Source of the DNA: a virus
Taxonomy: Duplodnaviria; Heunggongvirae; Uroviricota; Caudoviricetes
DNA: 6,245 nt
IMG/VR virus record: IMGVR_UViG_2802429253_000001
Coordinates: 1 to 6,245 of that record
Strand: one strand, 5' to 3'
Both the position numbers and the translations under genes were made by a program. Of the stretch, positions 1-6,245 are shown one piece after another. The notes under the pieces were generated by a model. That model saw nothing but the letters and a program-made list of their open reading frames with translations. It had not been told where the DNA came from and did no database searches. The first letter of the stretch is position 1. Every line of letters starts with the position of its first letter.

Positions 1-1
1 C

Positions 2-148
2 CATATTCCTGAACAACTGAGCAAACGAGAGAGGTATACCGACAAATGGCAGCGACGCACACACTCCCTCTGGCGTCACCGGGCATGGCACGCATCTGCC
101 TTTACGGGGATTTGCAACGATTTGGCCGCCGCATCGACCTTCGTGTGA
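2..148 (+). CDS. K: 3' end of tail-tip assembly protein K gene (partial, 5' end outside window). Frame 2 is open from the window edge to TGA at 146-148 and overlaps the start of I by 103 nt.
   Basis: Reading frame starting at nt 2 is uninterrupted to the TGA at 146-148. The 103-nt overlap with the I start at 46 matches the lambda K/I overlap as I recall it. The 48 visible codons are too few to identify by sequence alone. Confidence 0.6.
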   Translation, partial: HIPEQLSKRERYTDKWQRRTHSLWRHRAWHASAFTGICNDLAAASTFV

Positions 149-687
149 AAACGGGGGCTGAAGCCATCCGGGCACTGGCCACACAGCTCCCGGCATTTCG
201 TCAGAAACTGAATGAGGGCTGGTATCAGGTGCGCATTGCCGGGCGTGATGCAGGAGAAACCGAATTATCATCCCGTCTTAATGAGCCGCTGGCAAATGGT
301 GCCGTGATCCACATCGTGCCGCGTCTTGCGGGAGCAAAAAGTGGCGGTGTGTTTCAGGCGGTGCTGGGTGCGGCGTTGATTGCTACGGCAATCTGGATGC
401 CGGGGATCAGTATCGCTTTCAGTGACATTCTCTTTTCAATGGGTGCGGCGATGACGCTTGGCGGTGTTGCACAGATGCTGGCACCGAAAGCGAGTACCGC
501 AACAACGACCAGCACGGATAACGGAAAGCAGAACACCTATTTCTCCTCACTGGATAACATGGTTGCCCAGGGCAATGTCCTGCCCGTTCTGTTCGGTGAA
601 ATGCGCGTGGGGTCACGTGTGGTTTCTCAGGAGATCAGTACAGCTGATGAAGGTGATGGTGGTGAAATCGTGGTGATTGGTCGCTGA
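46..687 (+). CDS. I: Tail assembly protein I (lambda gpI family), 213 aa
   Basis: ATG at 46, TGA at 685-687. The N-terminus MAATHTLPLASPGMARICLYGDLQRFGRRIDLRVKTGAEAIRALATQLPAFRQKL and C-terminus DNGKQNTYFSSLDNMVAQGNVLPV..GEMRVGSRVVSQEISTADEGDGG..VVIGR match lambda gpI as I remember it, with a hydrophobic central segment. Position immediately upstream of J. Confidence 0.9.
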   Translation: MAATHTLPLASPGMARICLYGDLQRFGRRIDLRVKTGAEAIRALATQLPAFRQKLNEGWYQVRIAGRDAGETELSSRLNEPLANGAVIHIVPRLAGAKSGGVFQAVLGAALIATAIWMPGISIAFSDILFSMGAAMTLGGVAQMLAPKASTATTTSTDNGKQNTYFSSLDNMVAQGNVLPVLFGEMRVGSRVVSQEISTADEGDGGEIVVIGR

Positions 688-705
688 TGTAACATGTTTT
701 ATGTG

Positions 706-726
706 AAACCGCCTGCGGGCGGTTTT
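706..726 (+). promoter_or_regulatory. Hairpin in the I-J spacer (8-bp stem AAACCGCC/GGCGGTTT, 4-nt loop TGCG, short T tract); possible attenuator or RNA-stability element
   Basis: Read directly: 706-713 AAACCGCC pairs with 718-725 GGCGGTTT. The only T run is TTTT at 723-726, which overlaps the stem, so a true intrinsic terminator is doubtful. Confidence 0.35.
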
Positions 727-747
727 GTCGTTTATGGAGCATGAGGT

Positions 748-3700
748 ATGGGTAAAGGTAGCAGTAAGGGGCATACCCCGCGCGAAGCGAAGGACAACCT
801 GAAATCCACGCAGTTGCTGAGTGTGATCGATGTCATCAGCGAAGGGCCGATTGAAGGTCCGGGGGATGGATTAAAAAGCGTGCTGCTGAACAGTACGCCG
901 GTGCTGGACAGTGAGGGGAATACCAATATCTCCGGCGTCACGGTGGTGTTCCGGGCAGGTGAGCAGGAGCAGACACCGCCGGAGGGATTTGAATCCTCCG
1001 GCTCCGAGACGGTGCTGGGTACGGAAGTGAAATATGACACGCCGATCACCCGGACCATCACGTCGGCAAACATTGACCGTCTGCGTTTTACTTTCGGCGT
1101 GCAGGCACTGGTGGAAACTACCTCAAAGGGTGACCGGAATCCGTCGGAAGTCCGCCTGCTGGTTCAGATACAACGTAACGGTGGCTGGGTGACGGAAAAA
1201 GACATCACCATTAAGGGCAAAACCACCTCGCAGTATCTGGCCTCGGTGGTGGTGGATAAACTGCCGCCGCGCCCGTTCAATATCCGGATGCGCAGGATGA
1301 CGCCGGACAGCACCACAGACCAGCTGCAGAACAAAACGCTCTGGTCGTCATACACCGAAATCATCGATGTGAAACAGTGCTACCCGAACACGGCACTGGT
1401 CGGCGTGCAGGTGGATTCGGAGCAGTTCGGCAGCCAGCAGGTGAGCCGTAATTATCATCTTCGCGGGCGCATTCTGCAGGTGCCGTCGAACTATAACCCG
1501 CAGACGCGGCAATACAGCGGTATCTGGGACGGAACGTTTAAGCCAGCATACAGCGACAATATGGCCTGGTGTCTGTGGGATATGCTGACCCACCCGCGCT
1601 ACGGCATGGGGAAACGTCTTGGTGCGGCGGATGTGGATAAATGGGCGTTGTATGTCATCGGCCAGTATTGCGATCAGTCAGTGCCGGATGGCTTTGGTGG
1701 CACGGAGCCGCGCATCACCTGTAACGCTTACCTGACCACACAGCGTAAGGCGTGGGATGTTCTCAGTGATTTCTGCTCGGCGATGCGCTGTATGCCGGTA
1801 TGGAACGGGCAGACGCTGACGTTCGTGCAGGACCGACCGTCGGATAAGGTGTGGACCTATAACCGCAGTAATGTGGTGATGCCGGATGATGGCGCGCCGT
1901 TCCGCTACAGCTTCAGCGCCCTGAAGGACCGCCATAATGCCGTTGAGGTGAACTGGATTGACCCGGATAACGGCTGGGAGACGGCGACAGAGCTTGTGGA
2001 GGACACGCAGGCCATTGCCCGTTACGGTCGTAACGTCACGAAGATGGATGCCTTTGGCTGTACCAGCCGGGGGCAGGCACATCGCGCCGGGCTGTGGCTG
2101 ATTAAAACGGAACTGCTGGAAACGCAGACCGTGGACTTCAGCGTGGGTGCCGAAGGGCTTCGCCATGTACCGGGTGATGTCATTGAAATCTGTGATGATG
2201 ACTATGCGGGGATCAGCATCGGCGGGCGCGTGCTGGCGGTGAACAGCCAGACGCGGACACTGACGCTCGACCGTGAAATCACGCTGCCATCCTCCGGCAC
2301 CACGCTGATAAGCCTGGTTGACGGACAGGGGAATCCGGTCAGCGTGGAGGTCCAGTCCGTCACCGACGGCGTGAAGGTGAAAGTGAGCCGGGTTCCTGAC
2401 GGCGTTGCCGAGTACAGCGTGTGGGGGCTGAAGCTGCCGACGCTGCGCCAGCGCCTGTTCCGCTGTGTGAGTATCCGTGAGAACGATGACGGTACGTATG
2501 CCATCACTGCCGTGCAGCATGTACCGGAGAAAGAAGCCATCGTGGATAACGGGGCGCACTTTGACGGCGACCAGAGCGGCACGGTGAATGGTGTCACGCC
2601 GCCAGCAGTGCAGCACCTGACCGCAGAAGTCACCGCAGACAGCGGGGAATACCAGGTGCTGGCGCGCTGGGACACGCCGAAGGTGGTGAAGGGGGGGAGC
2701 TTTATGCTTCGCCTGACCGTGGCAGCGGATGACGGCAGTGAGCGGCTGGTCAGCACGGCCCGGACGACGGAAACCACATACCGCTTCACGCAACTGGCGC
2801 TGGGAAACTACAGGCTGACAGTCCGGGCGGCAAATGCCTGGGGGCAGCAGGGCGATCCGGCATCGGTATCGTTCCGGATTGCCGCACCGGCAGCGCCGTC
2901 TCGGATTGAGCTGACACCTGGCTATTTTCAGATAACCGCCACGCCCCATCTTGCCGTTTATGATCCGACGGTACAGTTTGAGTTCTGGTTCTCGGAAAAG
3001 CGGATTGCGGATATCAGGCAGGTTGAAACCACAGCCCGCTATCTTGGCACGGCGCTGTACTGGATAGCTGCCAGTATCAATATTAAGCCGGACCATGATT
3101 ATTATTTTTACATTCGCAGTGTGAACACCGTTGGCAAATCGGCATTCGTGGAGGCTGTCGGTCGGGCGAGCGATGATGCGGAAGGTTACCTGGATTTTTT
3201 CAAAGGCCAGATAACTGAATCCCATCTCGGCAAGGAGTTGCTGGAAAAAGTCGACCTGACAGAGGATAACGCCAGCAGACTGGATCAGTTTTCGAAAGAG
3301 TGGAAGGACGCCAACGATAAGTGGAATGCCATGTGGGGCGTCAAAATTGAGCAGACCGAAGACGGTAAGCATTATGTCGCGGGGCTTGGCCTCAGCATGG
3401 AGGATACAGAGGAAGGCAAACTGAGCCAGTTCCTGGTTGCCGCTAACCGTATCGCGTTTATTGACCCGGCAAACGGGAATGAAACGCCGATGTTTGTTGC
3501 GCAGGGCAACCAGATATTCATGAACGAAGTGTTCCTGAAGTATCTGACGGCTCCCACCATTACCAGCGGCGGCAATCCTCCGGTATTTTCCCTGACACCG
3601 GACGGGCGGCTGACGGCGAAAAATGCGGATATCAGCGGTAACGTGAACGCGAACTCCGGGACGCTCAACAACGTCACGGTAAATGAAAACTGTACGATTA

Positions 3701-4161
3701 AGGGCATGCTGGAGGCGAACCAGGTCAGAGGTGACTTCGTTAAAACTGTCTCCAAATCATTCCCGAAACAGGCTGGTACGTGGGGTAACACGGAAACACC
3801 AAACGGGACGGTTACAGTCACCATTTACGATGATCATAACTTTGACCGCCAGATTATTATTCCGCCCATTATTTTTAACGGTGTGGCGTATGACGATCCG
3901 GGGAGCGGTAATAACCCGGGAGGTACGCGATACACGGGTTATGGTTTTGAAGTTCGCAAAAACGGCGTATTAATCGCATCCAGAGAAACTAAAGGAGCCA
4001 TTCCCGGTAGTTACAGTGCGGTTATTGATATGCCGAGTGGTGGTGGTAGCGTCACTCTGGAGTTTAAGATTTTCCAGAAAGGCAATCAGGGCGCAGGTAA
4101 CATCACAGACTGTACGGTGATTGTGACCAAAAAAGCTGCTTCCGGTATCAGTATTAGTTGA
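748..4161 (+). CDS. J: Central tail fibre / host specificity protein J (lambda gpJ family), 1137 aa
   Basis: ATG at 748 preceded by GGAG at 737-740 (7-nt spacing); TGA at 4159-4161. N-terminus [28 protein letters not shown] and most of the body are near-identical to lambda gpJ (1132 aa) as I recall it. Lambda gene order is preserved. Confidence 0.95.
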
Positions 4162-4178
4162 ATTTTATAACCCCAATA

Positions 4179-4207
4179 CGGGCGCCAGAAATGGCGCCTT
4201 TTTTATT
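4179..4207 (+). terminator. Rho-independent terminator downstream of J (tJ-like)
   Basis: GGCGCC (4181-4186), loop AGAAAT, GGCGCC (4193-4198), then a T-rich run at 4199-4207 (TTTTTTATT). Confidence 0.65.
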
Positions 4208-4228
4208 GCAGAAAAGCGAGAGGTAATT

Positions 4229-4828
4229 ATGCGTAAATTATGTGCTGTTATTCTGTCTGCAGTAGTCTGGCTGGTCGCCGCTGGTACGCCAGCGAGCGCA
4301 GCAGAGCATCAGTCCACACTAAGCGGCGGGTATCTTCAGTCCCATACTGATATGCCCGGCAACGATGACCTGAAGGGCATTAACGTGAAATACCGTTATG
4401 AATTTACGGACACGCTGGGGCTGGTGACGTCATTCAGCTATGCAGGAGACAAGAATCGCCAGCTTACCCGTTACAGCGATACCCGCTGGCATGAGGATTC
4501 CGTGCGTAACCGCTGGTTCAGCATGATGGCGGGGCCGTCTGTACGCGTGAATGAATGGTTCAGTGCTTATGCGATGGCAGGTGTGGCTTACAGCCGTGTT
4601 TCGACGTTCTCCGGGGATTATCTCCGCGTAACTGACAACAAGGGGAAAACGCACGATGTGCTGACCGGGAGTGATGGCGGTCGCCACAGCAACACGTCTC
4701 TGGCGTGGGGGGCTGGCGTGCAGTTTAACCCGACCGAATCCGTGGCCATTGACCTTGCTTATGAGGGTTCCGGCAGTGGCGACTGGCGCACTGACGGTTT
4801 CATCGTGGGTGTCGGTTATAAATTCTGA
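4229..4828 (+). CDS. lom: Outer membrane protein Lom (Ail/Lom/PagC family beta-barrel), 199 aa with N-terminal Sec signal peptide
   Basis: ATG at 4229 preceded by GAGAGG; TGA at 4826-4828. Signal-peptide-like N-terminus [24 protein letters not shown]. Body ([48 protein letters not shown]...[10 protein letters not shown]) is near-identical to lambda Lom as I recall it, and ends in the aromatic residue typical of outer-membrane beta-barrels. Position between J and stf as in lambda. Confidence 0.95.
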
Positions 4829-4854
4829 TTAGCCAGGTAACACAGTGTTATGAC

Positions 4855-4881
4855 AGCCCGCAGATTCTGGCGGGCTTTTTT
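4855..4881 (+). terminator. Rho-independent terminator downstream of lom
   Basis: AGCCCGC (4855-4861), 8-nt loop AGATTCTG, GCGGGCT (4870-4876), followed by TTTTTT (4876-4881). Confidence 0.7.
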
Positions 4882-4892
4882 GTGGAGTGGAT

Positions 4893-6158
4893 ATGGCAGC
4901 AGTAAAAATCTCAGGTGTGCTGAAAGATGGTGCGGGAAAACCAATACAGAACTGCACTATTCAACTGAAGGCAAAGCGTAACAGCACCACGGTACTGGTG
5001 AACACGGTGGCCTCTGAAAATCCGGATGAAGCCGGGCGTTACAGTATGGATGTTGAGTATGGCCAGTACAGCGTCATCCTGCTGGTTGAAGGTTTTCCGC
5101 CTTCACATGCCGGAACCATTACCGTCTATGAAGGCTCCAGACCAGGTACGCTGAATGATTTTCTCGGTGCCATGACGGAAGAGGATGTCATGCCGGAGGC
5201 ATTGCGTCGTTTTGAGGCAATGGTGGAAGAAGCGGCACGCAACGCCGAAGCCGCCTCTCAGAGCGCAGCGGCGGCAAAGAAATCCGAAACTGCAGCGGCA
5301 TCATCGAAGAACGCGGCGAAAACCTCAGAAACGAATGCAGCTAACAGCGCACAGGCGGCAGCGGCCTCGCAGACTGCATCGGCAAATTCCGCGACAGCAG
5401 CTAAAAAATCAGAAACCAACGCGAAAAACAGCGAGACAGCCGCAAAGACGAGCGAAACCAACGCAAAGTCCAGCCAGACGGCAGCGAAGATCAGCGAAAC
5501 AAATGCCAAAGCCAGTGAAACTGCGGCGAAAAGCAGTCAGGATGCAGCAGCCGAAAGCGAGAGCGCGGCAGTCGGTTCTGCGACTTCAGCAGCCGGATCA
5601 GCAACTGCTGCGGCTAACAGCCAGCAAGCAGCGAAGACGAGCGAAACTAACGCAAAGTCCAGCCAGACGGCAGCGAAGACCAGCGAAACGAATGCCAAAG
5701 CCAGCGAAACTGCGGCGAAAAACAGTCAGGATGCAGCAGCCGAAAGCGAGAGTGCTGCAGCTGGTTCTGCAACAGCGGCAGCTAATAGCCAAAAAGCTGC
5801 AAAAGCCAGTGAAACTAACGCAAAGACGAGTGAAACAAAAGCAGCAGCCAGCGAGACAGAAGCAACGTCAGCCGCAACAAGAGCAGAGAATGCAGCCCGG
5901 ATTGCAGAAGATGCCGCTGATCCTGCTTCTGTCCCTCCGCTTCCTGATATCTGGCTACCCTTGAATGATTCTCTGGAAGCGATAACAGGGTATGCCCCGG
6001 GCTATAAAACAATAACCATCGGCAGTGATGAAATAACAATGCCTGTTAATGGCATATGCCAATTTAGCCGCGCTTCATCAGCAACGTATATTGATAAGTC
6101 CGGGCATATTACCGTGGCTGAAGCGGCGCACGAAAAACGCGAAAACGTTTCACGATAA
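4893..6158 (+). CDS. stf: Side tail fibre protein (lambda Stf / orf-401-like N-terminal anchor, long heptad-repeat shaft, short divergent C-terminal domain), 421 aa from the ATG
   Basis: ATG at 4893 with GGAG at 4884-4887 (5-nt spacing). The ORF track begins at an in-frame GTG at 4887, which I judge less likely. TAA at 6156-6158. N-terminus MAAVKISGVLKDGAGKPIQNCTIQLKAKRNSTTVLVNTVASENPDEAGRYSMDVEYGQYSVIL closely matches the N-terminus of lambda orf-401/Stf as I recall it. Confidence 0.85.
   Translation: MAAVKISGVLKDGAGKPIQNCTIQLKAKRNSTTVLVNTVASENPDEAGRYSMDVEYGQYSVILLVEGFPPSHAGTITVYEGSRPGTLNDFLGAMTEEDVMPEALRRFEAMVEEAARNAEAASQSAAAAKKSETAAASSKNAAKTSETNAANSAQAAAASQTASANSATAAKKSETNAKNSETAAKTSETNAKSSQTAAKISETNAKASETAAKSSQDAAAESESAAVGSATSAAGSATAAANSQQAAKTSETNAKSSQTAAKTSETNAKASETAAKNSQDAAAESESAAAGSATAAANSQKAAKASETNAKTSETKAAASETEATSAATRAENAARIAEDAADPASVPPLPDIWLPLNDSLEAITGYAPGYKTITIGSDEITMPVNGICQFSRASSATYIDKSGHITVAEAAHEKRENVSR
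5271..5921 (+). repeat. 21-nt periodic coding repeat: 31 consecutive heptads (consensus A-A-K-x-S-E-T / N-A-K-x-S-x-T) inside the side tail fibre gene
   Basis: Translation of residues 129-345 (track numbering) divides into 31 heptads with no stutter: AAKKSET AAASSKN AAKTSET NAANSAQ ... RAENAAR IAEDAAD. Confidence 0.85.
5439..5795 (+). repeat. Tandem direct duplication inside stf: copy 1 at 5439..5627 (189 bp, 9 heptads), copy 2 at 5628..5795 (168 bp, 8 heptads), with high nucleotide identity
   Basis: Copy 1 encodes AAKTSETNAKSSQTAAKISETNAKASETAAKSSQDAAAESESAAVGSATSAAGSATAAANSQQ. Copy 2 encodes AAKTSETNAKSSQTAAKTSETNAKASETAAKNSQDAAAESESAAAGSATAAANSQK. The copies differ by one heptad (GSATSAA-like) and a few substitutions. 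Confidence 0.85.
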
Positions 6159-6160
6159 AT

Positions 6161-6180
6161 GCGAAAACTTTACTTTTCGC
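6161..6180 (+). other. AT-rich hairpin just after the stf stop (GCGAAAA / loop CTTTAC / TTTTCGC)
   Basis: Read directly: 6161-6167 pairs with 6174-6180. No following T tract, so probably not a terminator on its own. Confidence 0.3.
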
Positions 6181-6193
6181 GCTTCAAACGAAA

Positions 6194-6218
6194 CAGCGGC
6201 ATTGGCCGCTGCTTTTTT
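6194..6218 (+). terminator. Strong rho-independent terminator downstream of stf
   Basis: CAGCGGC (6194-6200), loop ATTG, GCCGCTG (6205-6211), then C and TTTTTT (6213-6218). Confidence 0.75.
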
Positions 6219-6245
6219 ATTCATTAAGTGGAATCACTTCGGGTA

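Follow-up and report, generated by a model that had tools for sequence, protein, structure and literature searches.

A lambda-type side tail fibre gene with a long Ala/Ser heptad array, probably a coiled-coil shaft, cut short by a Mu-like prophage

The stretch of DNA analysed (hereafter the window) comprises 6,245 nucleotides, positions 1 to 6,245 of the IMG/VR virus record IMGVR_UViG_2802429253_000001, and carries gpI, gpJ, lom and stf, all on the plus strand and in the same order as in lambda (J-lom-stf) and in PhiR55_1. The central tail fibre, or tip attachment protein, gpJ (748..4161, +) is identified by the Pfam domains Phage-tail_3, FNIII-A_GpJ, Ig_J, Phage_Tail_Tip and Ig_GpJ_C, and is followed by lom (4229..4828, +), which codes for an Ail/Lom outer-membrane protein (PF06316, E = 1.6e-120). 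The stf reading frame opens with an ATG at 4893, from which residues are numbered here, or with an alternative GTG start at 4887; its first 91 residues (4893..5165, +) constitute the StfN collar/anchor domain, the Pfam match to PF08400 covering residues 3-132 of the product (E = 7.6e-67). Since the gene stands after gpJ and lom, and since its PF08400 collar domain shares 89% identity with that of Ur-lambda, the structure of which is solved (StfN, chain 9e7m_Ta, found with E = 4e-50 by PDB sequence search and as the best Foldseek match of the AF2 model), it is a lambda-type stf of the PfN-PCoil fibre family, present here as a truncated copy. Over 285 residues, in an alignment containing a 14-residue gap, its product is 60% identical to lambda orf-401, and its DNA is 97.6-97.8% identical to the stf genes of PhiR55_1 and IHE3034.

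The truncation is due to a transposable prophage: the gene is interrupted at 6118/6119, after codon 409, and the stf product is thus limited to 423 aa. Up to 6118 the sequence is collinear with the stf genes of PhiR55_1 and IHE3034, so that 5922..6118 (+; residues 344-409) is where the distal part that follows the shaft natively begins, its remainder being missing, whereas 6119..6245 (unstranded) is the right, mom-side terminus of a Mu-like prophage inserted in stf. In an alignment that begins at the terminal base, this segment shares 86% identity with the final 127 nt of Mu and SfMu; in E. coli genomes, Mu-like prophage ends lying beside 'protein mom' match it with 94-98% identity. The truncated reading frame takes from it its final 12 sense codons (6120-6155) and its stop codon (6156-6158). 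A complete distal receptor-binding part with downstream accessory genes, as expected of the family, was not found in the window, homology to the 785-aa Stf stopping at 6118; nor was the stf/Mu junction found in an exact-match scan of the GTDB representative genomes, or in 5,426 complete E. coli genomes.

Between the anchor and this distal remnant lies the most regular part of the gene (5271..5921, +), whose translation gives exactly 31 back-to-back heptads, as had been read from the sequence beforehand, in frame and devoid of any register break; a heptad-state Viterbi tracker follows a single unbroken register across residues 124-345. The consensus is [A/N]-A-[K/A]-x-S-[E/Q/A]-T. Ala at position 2 (30/31) and Ser at position 5 (28/31, the other three being Ala) are the best conserved residues, and correspond to the core positions a and d, respectively; Thr occupies position 7 in 21 of the 31 repeats, Lys or Ala position 3 (16/31 and 11/31), Glu, Ala or Gln position 6 (15, 8 and 7 of 31), while position 4 is variable. 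The sequence-only reading, which had placed Ala at both positions 1 and 2, was accurate for the second of these, whereas position 1 is Ala in 19 repeats and Asn in 7. Gly-containing heptads account for 3/31 repeats, AAVGSAT/SAAGSAT corresponding to residues 226-232. Overall, the array consists of 64.5% Ala+Ser+Thr, 21.7% charged residues and 1.4% LIVMFWY, T representing 8.6% of its bases; no Pfam family covering it was found. Such a near-absence of large hydrophobic core residues is unusual in a stable coiled coil, and counts against reading the array as a coiled-coil shaft.

The heptad periodicity is far above chance. At a lag of 7 residues the amino-acid identity is 0.52, against 0.19 +/- 0.024 in shuffled sequences (z = 13.6), and the Fourier power of the protein sequence peaks at periods of 7 (z = 37) and 3.5 (z = 35). 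At the nucleotide level, identity at lag 21 is 0.52, compared to 0.358 +/- 0.019 in codon shuffles (z = 8.5) and to about 0.28 in gpJ; when the whole window is scanned, values above 0.42 are confined to approximately 5209-5965. The 21-nt period that had been proposed as a check is therefore borne out by autocorrelation, but not by Fourier analysis of the DNA, where the 21-nt fundamental is without significance (z = -0.4) and the signal resides in the 10.5-nt harmonic (z = 24); a 21-nt Fourier peak, taken alone, is a misleading check for this array.

The strongest DNA period is in fact a longer one, of 189 nt. Autocorrelation is highest at lags 189 and 168, and TRF reports a period of 189 with 82-90% matches; these results, together with a repeat search, delimit a higher-order tandem duplication at 5427..5843 (+), made up of a 189-nt unit (nine heptads), a second copy shorter by one heptad and a partial third copy. 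Heptads 9-15 and 18-24 are identical at 134/147 nt, the second copy being without one heptad. Periods of 21, 42 and 189 nt are thus nested within the DNA of the array.

The helical region is longer than the regular array. The heptad AASQSAA at 5250-5270 fits the register, and three less regular heptads extend it to residue 99 (nt 5187), so that the helix begins about four heptads upstream of the start first given for it; this opening segment (5187..5270, +; VMPEALR RFEAMVE EAARNAE AASQSAA, the first three irregular) is defined by the register display and by an AF2 helix running from residue 96. A short stretch (5166..5186, +) separates the StfN domain from the shaft, the AF2 helix beginning at residue 96 and the lambda domain limits being those of PMC12617516.

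The low T content of the repeat gives rise to spurious open reading frames on both strands. One of these (5185..5964, +) would encode 259 aa with 33% Lys+Arg, and its being a real overlapping gene is ruled out by the substitution pattern: with respect to close relatives, 12-13 synonymous and 6 non-synonymous substitutions are counted in the stf frame, against 3 synonymous and 15-16 non-synonymous in the alternate one. The earlier suggestion that the alternate-frame and antisense reading frames are artefacts is consequently supported.

Comparison with homologues shows that the register is conserved and that length differences are mostly multiples of seven. Lambda, PhiR46_1 and ev243 share the same heptad register counted from the PEALRR landmark; lambda had been suspected of being less regular, and its heptads are indeed degenerate in sequence, but they keep the same uninterrupted register over almost the same length. 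Insertions and deletions with respect to close homologues are of 7, 7 and 63 residues, and among fibres of one tip type the interval between the landmark and the first Pro beyond the array varies by 7, 63, 98, 105 or 112 residues. Rare exceptions to the rule of seven occur among homologues, in the form of a single 16-residue deletion and of a few such intervals that differ by other amounts. The feature by which the family is recognised, Ala/Ser heptads placed directly after the N-domain and varying in length by multiples of seven, is therefore found here. Fibres carrying PF08400 fall into length classes of about 6-10, 14-23, 29-32, 37 and 44-47 heptads, mosaic joints and length polymorphism inside the array are seen among homologues, and the array module matches 19 PHROG tail-fibre families. 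PhiR55_1 has 32 heptads, ev243 about 18 and a further relative 46, and stf is present in roughly 17,000 copies among complete E. coli genomes.

As for its structure, the AF2 monomer is helical over residues 96-225 and 233-341 (pLDDT ~60-81) and contains no strands; a full-length homologue is modelled with helices at 102-221 and 238-341, interrupted at 222-237, and likewise without beta structure. Two properties of a canonical left-handed alpha-helical coiled coil are found in the array, namely an unbroken 7-residue periodicity with 3+4 core spacing, held by Ala (30/31) and Ser (28/31) at a and d, and alpha-helix throughout, according to AF2/DSSP and with moderate confidence. A third, large hydrophobic residues (Leu/Ile/Val) at a/d, is absent, these positions being Ala/Ser and LIVMFWY amounting to 1.4%; the array behaves as a coiled coil whose core, unusually, is made of small residues, a peculiarity also remarked on by Ghosh et al. 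(PMC3368898). PDB sequence searches found no solved structure over the array, coverage being restricted to the 94-residue N-domain, and Foldseek searches of the AF2 models yielded a convincing match for the N-domain only (9e7m), the long helices being uninformative. Among the PDB matches to the array, those to the RNA polymerase II CTD (YSPTSPS heptads), although at the top, are artefacts of periodicity and low complexity, and those to depolymerases (7lzj, 7vyv) and to T7 gp17 are short and weak.

Experimental data are available for related proteins. In E. coli O157 prophage fibres, the Ala/Ser heptad region following PF08400 has been named "PCoil" (Ghosh et al. 2012, PMC3368898); it is alpha-helical by CD, melts reversibly with a Tm of ~49-52 C, is trimeric by SEC-MALLS and appears by EM as a stalk of ~16 nm, while coiled-coil predictors favour a trimer and length differences are multiples of seven. 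In Ur-lambda gpStf, residues 102-393 have been assigned to a trimeric proximal coiled coil, seen as a trimeric bundle in cryo-EM (Yu et al. 2025, PMC12617516), and lambda Stf is among the listed long coiled-coil proteins (PMC1322226). Helicity, trimer state and rod shape have therefore been measured in homologues, and we infer by analogy that they extend to the protein considered here.

On these grounds, the proximal shaft of this lambda-type side tail fibre is very probably encoded by the region 5187-5921, as a trimeric coiled-coil spacer that changes in length heptad by heptad. Three Stf chains, the homotrimeric state being known for lambda (PMC12617516) and EPclA (PMC3368898), would each contribute an unbroken alpha-helix of ~245 residues (~35 heptads, of which 31 are highly regular), and together these helices would make up a parallel three-stranded coiled coil whose core is formed by small residues, Ala at a and Ser at d, rather than Leu/Ile/Val. 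The resulting rod, with an estimated length of ~36 nm (245 x 0.148 nm), would join the N-terminal StfN domains to the receptor-binding distal part and act as a spacer setting the reach of the fibre; in lambda, where twelve N-domains make up a collar on the tail (PMC12617516), the StfN collar sits at the tube/tip junction. Unequal recombination would lengthen or shorten the shaft by whole heptads, keeping the helical register at both ends. The product of this particular copy is limited to the anchor, the shaft and 66 distal residues by the Mu-like prophage following codon 409. The extended trimeric helical shaft anticipated from the sequence is thus supported (AF2 helix over 96-341, conserved register, and the homologue data of PMC3368898 and PMC12617516), but is ordinary, the module having already been described for E. 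coli prophage fibres and phage lambda; its role as a spacer between anchor and distal tip holds as far as the position after the N-terminal anchor is concerned, whereas the tip is missing, and there is none to space in this window because the Mu-like prophage end truncates the gene.

The break in the AF2 monomers raises the question of whether the helices fold back at the Gly heptads, so that each chain would form an antiparallel hairpin and the trimer a six-helix bundle roughly half as long. At moderate confidence the monomer is indeed broken and folded back at residues 226-232 (222-237 in the homologue), and an AlphaFold3 model of full-length lambda gpStf is folded back as well (PMC12617516); this arrangement is nevertheless very unlikely, as the AF3 folded model is, according to Yu et al., inconsistent with cryo-ET of Ur-lambda fibres (PMC12617516), the ~16 nm EM stalk measured for a PCoil of ~110 residues suits an extended helix (PMC3368898), and a hairpin is a common artefact of modelling a single chain from a parallel oligomer. 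Moreover, Gly heptads are found in just 3/31 repeats, and the register across them is unbroken and conserved.

The composition of the array, with 64.5% Ala+Ser+Thr, large hydrophobics nearly absent and no Pfam model, could also be that of a low-complexity linker, largely disordered or forming a single alpha-helix (SAH) instead of a packed coiled coil, and, judging from composition, intrahelical salt bridges of the i/i+3 and i/i+4 kind could link the Lys of position 3 with the Glu of position 6. SAH domains are typically rich in the charged residues Glu, Lys and Arg. The 21.7% of charged residues counted here is well below such a composition, it is the small residues, spaced 3+4, that are invariant, a pattern that marks a core and not a helix exposed to solvent, and strict heptad quantisation of insertions and deletions is not expected of a disordered linker; as, in addition, the homologous fragment shows cooperative, reversible melting and a trimer is obtained only with PCoil present (PMC3368898), a linker of either kind is highly improbable. 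Scarcely conceivable is a metastable, weakly hydrophobic coiled coil that turns into a beta-prism on receptor binding, as reported for a 163-residue coiled coil in the F7 pyocin central fibre, a non-contractile tail fibre, with further cases of such a switch predicted (He et al. 2026, bioRxiv 10.64898/2026.01.28.702463): although an Ala/Ser core and a homologue Tm of ~50 C (PMC3368898) suggest modest stability, the pyocin fibres are central ones driving membrane puncture, not accessory side fibres, Ur-lambda side fibres are similar when free and adsorbed, the hinge angle alone changing (PMC12617516), and no beta alternative appears in the AF2 models summarised here.

Taking the region as a trimeric coiled-coil shaft, its closest known counterparts are the PCoils of EPclA/EPclB from E. 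coli O157:H7 (Ghosh et al. 2012, PLoS One 7:e37872, PMC3368898), which likewise follow PF08400 (PfN), are Ala/Ser-rich with a 7-residue period and almost no Leu/Ile, and are measured trimeric alpha-helical stalks differing in length by steps of seven, as does the array described here. The latter is about twice as long (31-35 heptads compared to ~88-116 residues) and far more regular, and in intact stf relatives the shaft is followed by a lectin-like/beta-rich tip, in place of the collagen repeats of EPclA/EPclB; in a full-length homologue the tip, which lies outside the window, gives lectin/CBM-like Foldseek matches from a low-confidence model (mean pLDDT 46.7). The Ur-lambda gpStf proximal coiled coil, residues 102-393 (Yu et al. 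2025, Sci Adv, PMC12617516; PDB 9e7m), occupies the orthologous position in the orthologous gene, with an N-domain ~89% identical, the same register from the PE(A/V)LRR landmark and a length differing by one heptad; the lambda heptads are degenerate and without the recent 189-nt duplication, and lambda Stf continues to a hinge and, with Tfa, to a distal part resembling gp37, whereas the distal part here is of another type and truncated by Mu. In the lateral tail fibre of the T5-like phage DT57C (PDB 8hqz chain d, 'L-shaped tail fiber assembly'), residues 33-227 match the array (E = 2.4e-6; motifs SELNAK, SETNAA), with a register that is not strictly continuous (gapped alignment), and the corresponding paper contains no coiled-coil discussion of the region. 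Residues 170-264 of T7 gp17 match weakly (E = 0.12-0.21), the homology being not significant. The proximal rod of this tail fibre was reportedly described by Steven et al. in 1988 as a three-stranded coiled coil. The likeness lies in the succession of an N-terminal tail-binding domain, a trimeric alpha-helical rod and a distal receptor-binding part, the T7 rod being shorter and with a more conventional core. No atomic structure of a trimeric coiled coil with an Ala/Ser core was found among the PDB matches, and a literature search for alanine-rich heptad tail fibres returned nothing.

It is possible, though rather unlikely, that the nested 21/42/189-nt repeat is an evolvability device, with unequal recombination altering the reach in quantised steps, by ~1 nm for each heptad or ~9 nm for each unit of nine heptads, the shaft serving as the crossover site for tip swapping and the length classes being tuned to the thickness of the host O-antigen or capsule; of this proposal, the polymorphism and the mosaic joints are observed, while adaptive tuning is conjecture. 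Heptad-quantised length and mosaic joints are in any case relevant to the engineering of fibre length and to tip swapping in lambda-based vectors. As far as annotation is concerned, the region is to be described as the coiled-coil shaft (PCoil, or proximal coiled coil) of a truncated side tail fibre, and not as a new element; arrays of this kind mislead automatic pipelines, RefSeq breaking up the intact 787-aa stf of IHE3034 around the array, as two 'pseudogene' fragments.

The 31 Ala/Ser heptads at 5271-5921 (+ strand), which make up the shaft region of the side tail fibre gene stf, lie in a lambdoid prophage, within a run of distal tail genes that are all encoded on the + strand: gpI (46-687), gpJ (748-4161; six Pfam domains specific to gpJ), lom (4229-4828) and the stf-like gene itself (4887/4893-6158, from a GTG or an ATG start; residues are counted here from the ATG), in the same order as in lambda. 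The DNA at 4800-6118, comprising the end of lom and stf, shares 97.6-97.8% identity with the stf genes of E. coli IHE3034 and phage PhiR55_1, where full-length Stf has 785 residues; of 5426 complete E. coli genomes, 4865 contain sequence matching this stretch. Residues 1-91 are the StfN collar domain, identified by PF08400 (E = 7.6e-67) and by the solved chain 9e7m_Ta of Ur-lambda (E = 4e-50; Foldseek 89% identity); one homologue (P0118, 859 aa) carries 67 further N-terminal residues (alignment columns 1-67) before the usual MAAVKISG start, which may reflect a mis-called start or a fusion. The IHE3034 gene (NC_017628; 5088-7451 in the extracted locus) is an intact ORF of 787 aa, but RefSeq/PGAP divides it into two pseudogene fragments labelled 'incomplete' (5094-5460 and 6369-7451) and gives the heptad array no annotation, a split that looks like an artefact of the low-complexity repeat.

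Homology to intact stf ends at 6118, a feature overlooked in the earlier, sequence-only reading of this DNA; at the junction 6118/6119 the window passes from ...ACCGTGGC into TGAAGCGGCGCACG, where PhiR55_1 continues from ...ACCGTGGC into AGGGAATAAC. The segment 6119-6245 is 86% identical to Mu and SfMu, the match beginning at the phage's terminal base, and 94-98% identical to the ends of Mu-like prophages in E. coli genomes: these are the outermost 127 nt, on the right (mom) side, of a transposable Mu-like prophage inserted in stf, and the 421/423-aa product is therefore an insertion-truncated Stf. Anchor and shaft are retained in this product, along with 66 residues of the distal part; 12 codons derived from Mu (EAAHEKRENVSR) complete it, and its stop codon (6156-6158, + strand) lies within the Mu-derived sequence. 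The stf/Mu junction was not found in 5,426 complete E. coli genomes nor in GTDB representative genomes. The distal tip of the intact relatives, missing from the window, may be a beta-rich, possibly lectin-like domain, according to a low-confidence model.

Translation in the stf frame gives exactly the 31 consecutive heptads first reported, and the accompanying claim of an unbroken register holds, a heptad-state Viterbi tracker finding zero shifts over residues 124-345; upstream, AASQSAA (5250-5270) and, before it, three irregular heptads carry the same register back to residue 99. Of the 31 heptads, 30 have Ala at position 2, 28 have Ser at position 5 and 21 have Thr at position 7; Ala (19) and Asn (7) are the commonest residues at position 1, with Lys or Ala at position 3 and Glu, Gln or Ala at position 6. 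Ala, Ser and Thr together account for 64.5% of the residues, charged residues for 22% and large hydrophobics for 1.4%. Gly-containing heptads are confined to heptads 15-16 (AAVGSAT SAAGSAT, 5565-5606) and 24 (AAAGSAT, 5754-5774). Amino-acid identity at lag 7 is 0.52 vs 0.19 in shuffles (z = 13.6), and the protein Fourier spectrum peaks at periods 7 (z = 37) and 3.5 (z = 35). The 21-nt period expected in the DNA is borne out by lag-21 identity (0.52 vs 0.36 in codon shuffles, z = 8.5) but not by the Fourier spectrum of the array, in which the 21-nt fundamental is not significant, unlike the strong 10.5-nt harmonic. The periodic signal is limited to ~5209-5965. A 14-residue alternation, AAKxSET/NAKxSxT, is also present, which TRF calls as a 42-nt period; the dominant DNA period is 189 nt. 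Between heptads 9-15 and 18-24, 134 of 147 nt agree, the second copy being one heptad short, a pattern suggesting that nine heptads were recently duplicated in tandem and that a change of one heptad came afterwards.

Since T makes up only 8.6% of the array bases, few stop codons occur in any of the six frames. Relative to PhiR55_1 and IHE3034, substitutions are 12-13 synonymous and 6 non-synonymous in the stf frame, and 3 and 15-16, respectively, in that of the overlapping ORF 5185-5964; the earlier dismissal of this ORF and of the antisense ORFs as artefacts is correct.

The array is an already known and characterised module. The low-complexity region that follows PfN (PF08400) in prophage fibres of E. 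coli O157 has been named PCoil (Ghosh et al. [quoted passage not shown] Lambda Stf itself is listed among long prokaryotic coiled-coil proteins (Rose et al. 2005, PMC1322226), and the StfN dodecameric collar of Ur-lambda has been resolved as four fibres of three chains, with the start of a trimeric bundle visible by cryo-EM and residues 102-393 modelled as a proximal coiled coil from cryo-ET and segmented AF3 (Yu et al. 2025, PMC12617516). Neither Pfam nor the PDB has an entry that spans the array; phmmer matches in the PDB to the RNA polymerase II CTD (YSPTSPS heptads; E ~1e-4 to 1e-5, queries 4893-6158 and 5196-5942) are false positives, arising because two unrelated seven-residue Ser-containing repeats align in register.

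In the window Stf, AF2 (monomer, 14 aligned sequences) predicts helix at residues 96-225 and 233-341 (pLDDT ~60-81), as it does in a full-length homologue, and the invariant Ala and Ser are spaced 3+4, as are coiled-coil a and d positions. The only helix break in the shaft falls at AAVGSAT/SAAGSAT, and these Gly heptads could be a flexibility point or merely the site where the monomer model folds back. A shaft folded back into a six-helix bundle would accommodate this break, yet is unlikely: the break at residues 226-232 is the same fold-back artefact as in the AF3 full-length gpStf model, which folded back on itself contrary to the tomograms (Yu et al. 2025, PMC12617516). The scarcity of large hydrophobics might be reconciled with a disordered or SAH linker, but this is likewise improbable given the modest share of charged residues, the 3+4 spacing of the invariant small residues and the whole-heptad indels described below. 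A metastable coil that converts into a beta-prism, the behaviour reported for the central fibre of F7 pyocin, is also unlikely, the AF2 monomer containing zero strands.

Helix prediction, conserved register and the characterised homologous module instead support the extended trimeric alpha-helical spacer originally proposed. Three parallel strands would wind into a coiled coil with a core of Ala (a) and Ser (d), giving a shaft inferred to be ~36 nm long (~245 residues x 0.148 nm), which would link the collar domain with the receptor-binding distal part and set the reach of the fibre.

Searched by itself, the array hits 19 PHROG tail-fibre families, and it also aligns with residues 33-227 of chain 8hqz_d, the lateral fibre of DT57C (E = 2.4e-6); it is thus a widespread fibre module. 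Counting from the conserved PE(A/V)LRR landmark, one register is shared by lambda orf-401 (~34 Ala/Ser heptads), PhiR55_1 (~32), PhiR46_1 (~33-34) and ev243 (~18); the lambda and window shafts differ by one heptad, and the BLASTP alignment of the two proteins contains a 14-residue gap. In 54 of 91 PF08400 representatives (350 aa or longer) the array is detectable, with 6 to 47 heptads (mode 29-32); 35 of these have no register shift, and the remaining 19 mostly a single +3 shift near the array's C-terminal end. Register is therefore kept among homologues, one of the points on which the coiled-coil reading had been staked. Indels among close relatives are of 7, 7 and 63 residues, plus one of 16 near the array end, and within a tip type the distances between the landmark and the first proline beyond the array differ, with a few exceptions, by 7, 63, 98, 105 or 112 residues. 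Shaft length would evolve in whole heptads, by unequal recombination between the 21-, 42- and 189-nt repeats.

The 16-residue deletion, not a multiple of 7, concerns homologue P0092 and the '238' length class, in the PYKYVLQP tip type, and the +3 shift of many homologues falls in the same region; a conserved stutter may lie here, just ahead of the shaft-tip junction. Similarity to groups of lambdoid phages stops inside the array at 5362, 5519 and 5783, and these phages (examples are 2G7b with PhiR46_1, ev243, and the Lambda_4C10 group) share the N-domain and part of the shaft before diverging within it. Register is preserved across these joints, and the conserved shaft DNA is suggested to serve as a recombination joint for distal-tip exchange.
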